From the IMG/VR virus record IMGVR_UViG_2698536401_000015: a stretch of 36,609 nucleotides of DNA. The stretch is one strand, 5' to 3'. This DNA comes from a virus (lineage: Duplodnaviria > Heunggongvirae > Uroviricota > Caudoviricetes). The position numbers and the translations under genes were made by a program. Below, piece after piece: positions 13,387 to 15,011 of this stretch. The notes below the pieces were generated by a model. It ran no database searches. It was given only the letters and a program-made list of their open reading frames with translations, and was not told the DNA's origin. Every line of letters begins with the position of its first letter. The stretch's first letter is position 1.

Positions 13387-13390
13387 ATAC

Positions 13391-13420
13391 AACAACGGCT
13401 CTTAGAGAGCCGTTGTTTTT
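13391..13420 (+). terminator. rho-independent terminator immediately after Q
   Basis: Perfect 11-bp stem AACAACGGCTC / GAGCCGTTGTT with loop TTAGA, followed by TTT and further T-runs. Confidence 0.6.
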
Positions 13421-13590
13421 AGAAACTGTTTTTTATGACTGAACCTGTGGTGCAACTTAAAAAGTTACTGTAGCCATTGACGCCATTGTTGCTTGTTTTT
13501 TGAGCAGTGGATGGGATGCTTGCTGGCTTAGGCGCAGCTGTATTTGTATGCCTGTTAGTATAGACTACAAAGTTACCTGTAGATGATTTG

Positions 13591-14586
13591 TTATCCATGT
13601 CGAGCCCACCCCTCTGAGATAAGGTTATGATTTATGCCGAACTGACCTGGGACGTCTGAAACTTGCAAACGCTGTAACATCCCCTCAGTGCGGAATTGAT
13701 ATGAAAATGTGTCTGGAGCCTCTAAAATGCTTCTGACAGATACGTACGATGCCTGGTTAACTGTTCCTAAGATAGCATTTGGGTCAAAAGGTTCACCCAG
13801 ATGCATCTCAGTTTTGAAATCTTCATAAATTTCTTTGATCAGACCGTAAAGGTGCTCATCTGGTTTTTCCACCGTAAGACCTAAATCGTTTACCGCTTCA
13901 ATCCTATTTATAGTGTAGTCATGGCTACCAGAATCACTACAAAGGAAACTTACAATTTTCTCAATGCTTTCACTATCAGTGAGTTGGTGAGACAGTAGTT
14001 TTCTTGCGAGCATTTGAATCTGCGCTTTAGCTCGATAGACTTTTCCAAGTACCAGGGGATGAACCTTTTCACTTAATGCAAGGAGGATCTGTGCAAGTGA
14101 GGCATCATCTTTGATACTCAAATCATGCTTAACTACTTCAAGATAGCCATTGATTTCTTCAACACTGACTGGAAGTTGAAGTTGCTGCCCATTGATTATG
14201 GCCGAAGGGTTAAGTGGTGTATTCACACTTGGATCGATTGGCCCTAAGGTTGCCTGCTTGGTCATAACCAAGTTGTTCGCGCCAAGGCACATTATCGTCC
14301 CAGAACTATGGCATTTGGATGGGATTATGATTTCGAGTTCTTTACAAAACTGACGAAGCAGGTTTACAAGGCTCCATGCTGTTAAAGTGTCGCCGCCTCG
14401 CGTATAGAGCACGAGGCTAATTTTTTGAACATCACCTATCACATCAAGATGATTGACGAACAGATCGAATACATCAGCGCTGATTTGAGCTTCTTGGTTT
14501 GGTCTATCACCTGTTACATAGCATAATACTTTTGAATTGCGTGCTTGTTCCAGTTGCGCATACAGGGCTTTACGCTGCTCAAACAT
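13591..14586 (-). CDS. S49/SDH-type ClpP-fold serine peptidase-like protein with a ~200-aa C-terminal extension (331 aa)
   Basis: Opposite strand to the late operon, lower GC. N-terminal motifs LVLYTRGGD...PSKCHSSGTIMCLGAN...LGPIDP resemble the ClpP/SppA/SDH fold; assignment is from motif recall only. Confidence 0.55.
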   Translation of the reverse strand: MFEQRKALYAQLEQARNSKVLCYVTGDRPNQEAQISADVFDLFVNHLDVIGDVQKISLVLYTRGGDTLTAWSLVNLLRQFCKELEIIIPSKCHSSGTIMCLGANNLVMTKQATLGPIDPSVNTPLNPSAIINGQQLQLPVSVEEINGYLEVVKHDLSIKDDASLAQILLALSEKVHPLVLGKVYRAKAQIQMLARKLLSHQLTDSESIEKIVSFLCSDSGSHDYTINRIEAVNDLGLTVEKPDEHLYGLIKEIYEDFKTEMHLGEPFDPNAILGTVNQASYVSVRSILEAPDTFSYQFRTEGMLQRLQVSDVPGQFGINHNLISEGWARHG

Positions 14587-14867
14587 TCAGATGTCCTTAT
14601 GTTAAGAATTTTCAAACCAAGAGGTAACATTCATTCAGAACTTACCACACAAGTGGTTAGATTCTATCGGCAAAAAAAGTCCAAAAATTAGCGCATTTAC
14701 AAAACTCAAAGAGAGCAATGAGATTTTGCAAACGTACAGTGTGGATAACTTATGTGCAAAGTGGCGTTGATTTTACTCATTCGCTTCAAAAAAACCATAG
14801 TTTTCCTCACGCGGTCCGCATTTTGTCGTGTAATCTGTTAAGAGTGGTTACTTCGCCACACAGCTTA

Positions 14868-14895
14868 AACCCGCCGTCGAGCGGGTTTTGTCATT
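14868..14895 (+). terminator. rho-independent terminator (candidate tR'-like) upstream of the IS and holin
   Basis: Stem AACCCGC / GCGGGTT with loop CGTCGA, followed by TTTTGTCATTT. Confidence 0.45.
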
Positions 14896-15011
14896 TCTGG
14901 GCCTTGGTATTCGTTGGGCTTGGTCTATCTAGTACTTATCCATTGGCTCGGCTTCTTTTACGTTTCCGCTTCTGATTTGCGGTGACCTGCCCCCACGATT
15001 AGATACAACAC

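Follow-up and report, generated by a model that had tools for sequence, protein, structure and literature searches.

Several described systems resemble parts of the locus reported here. The SDH Clp-fold serine proteinases (PF01972, NF047768) are named for the order of their Ser, Asp and His residues, and no published function for the family was found in the literature searched. A common fold is found in the NfeD/STOPP protease 1510-N and in SppA (S49, Ser-Lys). Toxin-antitoxin (TA) systems of the Panacea type (PanA/SocA, DUF4065) are bicistronic, overlapping and prophage-associated, and experiments have validated Panacea as an antitoxin domain of high promiscuity, which binds many unrelated toxins directly and so neutralises them (PMC8832971). 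The concept of a protease that stays silent until infection is common to Lit/Gol, RosmerTA (ImmA protease), CalpL, CHAT and the gasdermin-activating proteases, while lambda rexAB, P2 old and tin, and the stx- or nmpC-type morons of the Q-S interval are accessory genes found at particular phage sites. Here we analysed the virus record IMGVR_UViG_2698536401_000015 (Caudoviricetes; 36,609 nt, the whole of which we call the window), a lambdoid-type prophage in which a minus-strand cassette of two genes lies between the antiterminator gene Q and the lysis genes. The cassette pairs an SDH-type protease gene with a small partner gene, and the best overall explanation, which we put forward tentatively, is a protease and its neutraliser serving abortive infection or phage exclusion.

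When compared with these systems, the window protease was like the SDH family in its Pfam match, ClpP-like fold, Ser-Asp-His order and PGAP name, but it is extended at its C-terminus by a three-stranded sheet of about 55 residues, is paired with a small downstream gene and falls below the equivalog cutoff. Its nucleophile Ser aligns with that of 1510-N and SppA, whereas their catalytic Lys is not conserved and a membrane segment and stomatin partner are absent. A Panacea partner was observed in seven Clostridia loci, whereas the window and most other loci have a partner of about 60 residues without a Panacea domain. The cassette uses the same kinds of site as rexAB, old/tin and the stx/nmpC-type morons but has no sequence relationship to them, and an exclusion function would be suggested by analogy of site. 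The folds and partners of Lit/Gol, RosmerTA, CalpL, CHAT and the gasdermin-activating proteases are unrelated to those of the cassette, so that these systems are a resemblance only, and in Rosmer the protease is the antitoxin, unlike the role proposed here. The features of the cassette are as follows.

13591-14586, minus strand: SDH-type ClpP-fold serine protease gene, 331 residues, ATG start, intact
14594-14598: AAGGA ribosome-binding site of the protease gene
14305-14307: codon of candidate catalytic residue Ser94 in the protease gene
14233-14235: codon of candidate catalytic residue Asp118 in the protease gene
13921-13923: codon of candidate catalytic residue His222 in the protease gene
13419-13598, minus strand: small partner gene, 59 residues (MDNKSSTGNFVVYTNRHTNTAAPKPASIPSTAQKTSNNGVNGYSNFLSCTTGSVIKNSF), belonging to no Pfam or NCBIfam family
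13391-13417, no strand assigned: GC-rich hairpin, a possible bidirectional terminator (terminator scan and direct reading of the sequence)
14587-14805, minus strand: cassette-specific upstream region, presumed to contain the cassette's own promoter (homology to other phages starts only at about 14806)

The original prediction of a ClpP-fold peptidase-like protein of 331 residues, encoded on the opposite strand between Q and a lambda-family holin, was borne out. The open reading frame (ORF) is real and intact, the YTRGGD, HSSGT and LGPIDP motifs on which the prediction was based lie at residues 61-66, 93-97 and 114-119, and residues 53-127 matched PF01972 (SDH_protease) at 53.8 bits, well over the 31.3-bit threshold (E=1.9e-14), its homologues scoring 49-72 bits against the same model. 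A 99%-identical E. coli protein is named 'SDH family Clp fold serine proteinase' by PGAP. The score against the NCBIfam equivalog NF047768 was 69.4 bits, far below its 250-bit cutoff, and the window protease is therefore placed in a divergent subfamily rather than among the equivalogs. It had no match to the ClpP family (CLP_protease, PF00574), for which its relatives fell below or near the cutoff; the position of the ClpP His would, by eye, correspond to Lys110, which is variable in the family, and an hhalign comparison with E. coli ClpP spanned residues 47-77 only, which left the His and Asp of ClpP unplaced. A search of PDB sequences with the single protease gave nothing meaningful, 1510-N was the one match, and a weak one, to the family profile, and PHROG and NCBIfam returned weak similarity to ClpP-related head-maturation proteases (E 1e-3 to 1e-6).

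What had been taken for an unrecognised C-terminal domain of about 200 residues proved to be mostly SDH domain, as the NCBIfam model aligned to residue 249, giant-virus SDH proteinases aligned with the window protease over about 260 columns, and the helical part at residues ~140-270 belongs to this domain and includes His222. Only the last ~55 residues, those forming the sheet, are specific to the family. No membrane anchor or signal peptide of the kind found in S49/NfeD peptidases was detected in the protease, which contains no hydrophobic segment (maximum 19-residue Kyte-Doolittle hydropathy of 1.25) and is thus expected to be cytoplasmic.

We counted residue conservation over 117 representatives of 50%-identity clusters. 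Ser94 (98%), Asp118 (99%) and His222 (99%) were nearly always retained, in the order that names the SDH family, together with Gly64-Gly65 (98%), Glu143 (98%) and Trp327 (97%). Ser94, within HSSGT, aligned in the family profile with the nucleophile Ser97 of 1510-N, and the difference in a deposited S97A mutant chain of 1510-N fell exactly in the Ser94 column. A Ser-Lys dyad, which the original prediction had proposed looking for, was rejected, since the column equivalent to the catalytic Lys138 of 1510-N was variable and Lys110 was kept in only 50% of the representatives (Lys in 58 of 117). Ser94 is instead probably the nucleophile of a triad completed by Asp118 and His222, and we consider it likely that the protein is an active protease.

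Homologues of SDH-type proteinases are also encoded by giant viruses (Hyperionvirus, Edafosvirus, Harvfovirus, Klosneuvirus and others), sometimes several per virus, and these were the closest viral structural matches to the window protease (BFVD).

The protease had been described as stand-alone, a view that did not survive the finding of a conserved partner ORF overlapping its stop codon. The partner ATG lies within this overlap (ATGGATAA), an arrangement by which translation of the two genes is predicted to be coupled. For the viral survey, 84 loci from viral contigs and assemblies were reduced to 47 non-redundant loci with protease identities of 43-99%, and an ORF of at least 55 residues was observed at the protease stop in all 47, compared with about 10% per locus in shuffled controls. 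The corresponding survey of species-representative genomes covered Proteobacteria, Bacillota, Bacteroidota, Spirochaetota, Chloroflexota, Planctomycetota, Patescibacteria and one archaeon, and 72 of its 79 loci contained the partner ORF, while three of the seven loci without it lay at contig ends. Across the viral and genomic loci the partner started between -39 and +25 nt from the protease stop, and the two genes form the adjacent, co-oriented and usually overlapping pair that is typical of type II TA modules.

Purifying selection on the partner was indicated by ratios of nonsynonymous to synonymous substitution (dN/dS) of 0.07-0.3 where synonymous sites were unsaturated, and the partner evolved at 3-6 times the rate of the protease. 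Two motifs were evident from the alignments, approximately [IV]xYxDYxx[ST]S[AS] (motif 1) and (P)D[SN]Lxx[IL][IM][KR]Nxx[IV][IV] (motif 2). The products contain many Ser, Thr and Asn residues; that of the window has no hydrophobic segment and is probably disordered, and searches of Pfam and NCBIfam matched it to no family. A profile search of 5.8 billion clusters recovered only 25 proteins, all unnamed or 'hypothetical' and 56-89 residues long, one of which directly follows a PF01972 gene (8-nt overlap) in a prophage of another assembly and another of which shares its island with FitA/PIN, GmrSD and an M78 peptidase. The partner gene was not called in the PGAP/RefSeq annotation of the related prophages EC11 and AH02. 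Longer partners of 108-168 residues were observed in three Spirochaetota loci and four other loci; these keep the N-terminal motifs and add C-terminal segments (such as a ...W.TPEEDEAWANL tail), for which no Pfam, NCBIfam or PDB match was found. A HicB-like domain considered for a spirochaete variant of 160 residues was unsupported in domain searches.

The identity of the partner changed in the seven Clostridia loci. Here the product of the gene that overlaps the protease stop is about 196 residues long, and its first ~45 residues, containing motif 1 (…SSNYYTTVTSAVP…), are fused to a SocA-like Panacea domain (PF13274, E=3e-20, above threshold; NCBIfam SocA_antitoxin, E=1.6e-14). The exchanged partner therefore contains a recognised antitoxin domain, and the window partner itself has none. 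On balance the features of the small partner tip slightly towards an antitoxin-like protein. A Clp-fold or SDH toxin was mentioned neither in the main texts of PMC8832971 and PMC10440598 (NetFlax) nor in the PMC8832971 supplements examined.

We found more than 4000 homologues of the protease (as database clusters), with 317 matches among representative species genomes. Identities of 50-66% were maintained across many phyla and one archaeon (Methanofastidiosum), an unusually strong conservation over so wide a range, which points to frequent horizontal transfer combined with strong constraint. A tblastn search of 50,697 GenBank phage records gave no close homologue, the best hits being at most 35% identical. 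The SDH gene occupied at least five different positions and was not syntenic among phages. The pair was observed in the lambdoid Q-S interval in the E. coli group and five other loci, and in the repressor operon on the same strand as a cI-like gene, where it lay directly downstream of that gene in one locus, two small ORFs past it in another and three genes past it in two more; the cI operon is the position of rexAB in lambda. Five loci placed the pair at prophage ends beside tail-fibre genes, and in four it separated TerL from portal, the S78 prohead protease being a different gene further along. Other loci had it beside a RelA/SpoT-domain gene (one locus), an SNF2 helicase (one locus) or C5 methylases (three loci). 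In four loci of P2-like phages it lay between replication gene A and portal/terminase, and this gpA-gpQ locus, which in P2 holds old and tin, has been documented as an antiviral hotspot (PMC9122126). Judged qualitatively, the pair resides in documented defence hotspots or islands (the P2 gpA-gpQ locus and the cI operon), and this location makes a role in exclusion plausible.

No neighbour was conserved when two genes per side were compared in 40 diverse genomes. Among these neighbours were many type I restriction-modification genes as well as EcoRII, Vsr, DNA methylase, HipA, AAA_21, integrase, terminase and insertion sequence (IS) families, and GmrSD and PIN/FitA genes were also present among the genomic neighbours. 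The Q-S interval itself holds other minus-strand cargo in other phages (cdtI orf53/54, SfIV genes 48/49 and 434B/DLP12 nmpC), in agreement with the original prediction that it is a variable cargo site. The G+C content of the cassette (41%, compared with 56% in the nearby DUF968 gene) fits foreign cargo, and the interval almost certainly represents a horizontally mobile accessory cargo of two genes, or 'moron'.

Genes for trypsin-like (S1/Trypsin_2) peptidases recurred near the SDH cassette, in locus L001 (10282-11022), in loci L010 and L011 (7267-8121) and at the start of locus L023. One such gene is further cargo after the lysis genes of the EC11 prophage, and in a Ketobacteraceae genome one immediately follows the cassette.

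The remaining features of the window that bear on the cassette are its flanking and prophage genes, a conserved block and an IS element.

1459-2622: integrase gene of the prophage
6493-7167: S24 repressor gene of the prophage
13021-13386, plus strand: Q antiterminator gene (PF06530, E=1e-53), the left flank of the cassette
14806-14896, plus strand: block conserved despite different cargo (cdtI, SfIV, 434B/DLP12), including a terminator hairpin at 14867-14888
14983-16203, minus strand: IS1222-like insertion of the IS3 family, 1221 bp (Pfam; Rfam RF00383, 156 bits; ends and inverted repeats; comparison with EC11/AH02)
15869-16132: IS1222 orfA, within the element
15012-15845: IS1222 orfB, within the element
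15785-15902: IS1222 frameshift element (RF00383), within the element
14979-14982 and 16204-16207: 4-bp target duplication GCGG flanking IS1222
16266-16592, plus strand: lambda-family holin gene (PF05106), first gene of the lysis cassette and the right flank
22532-23218: S78 prohead protease gene, between portal and capsid

RusA, KilA-N and DUF968 genes were also present in the prophage. The holin, endolysin and spanin genes begin at 16266, after which come terminase and portal genes, the S78 prohead protease gene, and the genes for capsid and tail. In the region from the Q stop to the holin start we observed a low-GC segment of 1.4 kb, a block of about 90 nt common to other phages and the 1221-bp IS1222-type element. 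The interval first proposed (13387-14982) was thus correct as to its cargo, while its right border is the IS element at 14983-16203, which had gone unmentioned. IS1222 lies outside the cassette proper and is absent from related prophages that are 99% identical. The 13387-14982 interval was 99.3% identical in the EC11 prophage and in a 43.7-kb circular form (strains AH02 and CT01), and the EC11, AH02 and CT01 prophages, being without the IS, give the native order as Q, protease (minus strand) and holin. The full interval was present in 47 of 5426 complete E. coli genomes. This IS1222 copy lies 58 bp ahead of the holin ATG, oriented against the holin gene, and it may be polar on the lysis and late genes and so cripple the prophage. 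In AH02 and CT01 the related prophage was assembled both in the chromosome and as the 43.7-kb circular 'plasmid' (NZ_CP081704.1; four hits), which suggests that the IS-free relative excises and is active.

Two other regions of the window were observed to contain possible cargo. An ORF of 260 residues with 35% G+C (17593-18375, plus strand) directly follows the spanin genes and matches PHROG 8440 (function unknown); no Pfam or PADLOC match was found for it, and it is probably a second cargo gene. The tail region contains a low-GC island (~41-44%), and in it an ORF of 148 residues (30749-31195, minus strand) that encodes a tRNA_anti-like OB-fold domain (PF12869) and is probably a third.

The protease had also been expected to be expressed against the late operon. 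It is indeed encoded on the minus strand, but antisense transcription is doubtful, as the conserved terminator block is situated between the cargo and the holin. The hairpin at 13391-13417 begins 4 nt past the Q stop and 1 nt past the stop of the small partner gene, forms the Q-proximal end of the cassette and leaves no space for a promoter between Q and the cassette. The cdtI Q gene shares 88% DNA identity with the window Q, and homology to the cdtI Q region ends ~33 nt before the Q stop codon. A part of the block spanning 60 nt (~14830-14892) was nearly invariant in the window, EC11, cdtI, SfIV and 434B and was always on the holin side of the cargo. Just upstream of it is a short palindrome whose sequence in 434B is TACGTACGTA, whereas the window, cdtI and SfIV have GCGGTCCGC, the DLP12/434B Q being 53% identical to the window Q. 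We propose the block and palindrome as a candidate unit comprising a Q-binding site, late-promoter leader and tR'. The post-Q hairpin, the end of the cdtI homology and the invariant block on the holin side together place the late promoter and leader downstream of the cargo, a placement that we favour with some reserve and under which the cassette and Q would be transcribed towards each other, so that the cassette would not run antisense to the late operon. No Rfam family matched the block, and promoter scans of both strands gave no convincing sigma-70 match for the late operon. The QBE (Q-binding element) repeat described for phage 21 is TGAGCA (PMC6606751), and the window Q is only a distant relative of the phage 21 protein.

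The course of events that we infer for the cassette would begin in the lysogen, where it would be transcribed from its own promoter to the Q-adjacent hairpin. The first gene would supply a soluble SDH-type ClpP-fold serine protease, the effector or toxin of the pair, and the second a coupled protein of 55-80 residues acting as cognate neutraliser, in the simplest case a pseudo-substrate or tight-binding antitoxin. If a labile partner were lost or displaced, for instance after an incoming phage had blocked gene expression in the host, the protease would be released to cut proteins of the host or the phage and the infection would abort, so that the population of lysogens would be protected and competing phages excluded. 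The defence role, taken by itself, we regard as possible, a little more hesitantly than the explanation as a whole. It is rather doubtful that the cassette represents a new TA or abortive-infection class spread by horizontal gene transfer, in which an ATP-independent ClpP-fold toxin would be held by a disordered pseudo-substrate of about 60 residues, maybe turned over by the protease, as a 'translation-shutoff timer'.

Several observations weigh against this explanation. Neither the protease nor the small ORF had a match in PADLOC-DB v2 at E<=0.1, the 260-residue ORF likewise gave no PADLOC hit, and the literature searched, including the DefensePredictor, P2/P4 hotspot, Panacea and NetFlax work, linked the family to no defence or TA system. 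The neighbourhood evidence is qualitative. Promoter scans of the cassette gave weak matches only, none of them convincing as a sigma-70 promoter. According to PMC8832971, SocA acts as an adaptor for ClpXP, and a Panacea partner could accordingly signal an 'adaptor' instead of an 'antitoxin'. The two roles could also be reversed, judging from Rosmer defence TA systems, in which the protease is the antitoxin.

Among the alternatives, the same protease and neutraliser could serve to stabilise the carrier element through addiction, that is, by post-segregational killing. A coupled pair of genes and a partner fused to Panacea are what one would expect of classical type II TA modules, and the pair was also observed beside IS elements, integrases and the TA genes FitA/PIN and HipA, but its repeated occurrence at exclusion-gene sites (the P2 old/tin locus and, as for rexAB, the cI operon) speaks for defence, many TA modules at such sites having proved defensive. 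We consider addiction unlikely as the explanation of the pair, although the two roles are not mutually exclusive.

An enzyme paired with its adaptor or substrate would instead remodel the host or phage proteome, either as an anti-defence protease that breaks down immunity proteins of the host or in lysogenic conversion, with the small protein matured into an active peptide or recruiting the target. The adaptor function of SocA, the founding Panacea protein, and the occurrence of Panacea-fused partners are consistent with this, as are a disordered, substrate-like partner and a highly conserved family, which would fit a conserved target. A secreted peptide is nevertheless improbable given that neither protein has a signal peptide or hydrophobic segment, the faster evolution of the partner is that of antitoxins and specificity elements, and the layout in the window and in cI operons points to a separate or repressor-linked unit that would be expressed in the lysogen rather than early in the lytic cycle. 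We rate this possibility as somewhat less probable even than addiction.

A head-maturation protease was rejected, as the SDH gene lies outside the portal-capsid slot and the slot is filled by S78; the SDH protein is therefore not a morphogenetic protease, and its gene has no syntenic position among the phages surveyed. Least likely of all, and in our view very improbable, is a developmental protease needed for the phage's own life cycle, whether in head or scaffold processing or in repressor cleavage, since the weak PHROG and NCBIfam similarity and the TerL-portal position in a few loci are set against a canonical S78 protease in the window phage and in those same loci, a position that varies by phage type and extends outside prophages, a strand opposite to all neighbouring phage genes, and the presence of the interval in so small a share of the E. 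coli genomes.

For the protease-neutraliser explanation, the name of the protease family is the part already known. We found no earlier description, in PADLOC v2 or the literature searched, of the partner gene, of the conserved pairing with its Panacea exchange or of the placement in antiviral hotspots, and both the effector fold and the partner family would be new for prophage-borne TA or defence modules. The small partner gene is worth adding to annotations, within a cassette of ~1.4 kb, and the Q-S, cI operon and P2 old/tin sites can be read across phage types to spot the same mobile cassette. If the explanation is correct, a ClpP-fold protease would join the effectors of TA and abortive-infection systems, a family of small partner proteins outside the Pfam and NCBIfam models would be defined, and a widespread family so far annotated by name only would gain a function. 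The target of the protease would then point to a protein, of the host or of the phage, through the cleavage of which infection is stopped.

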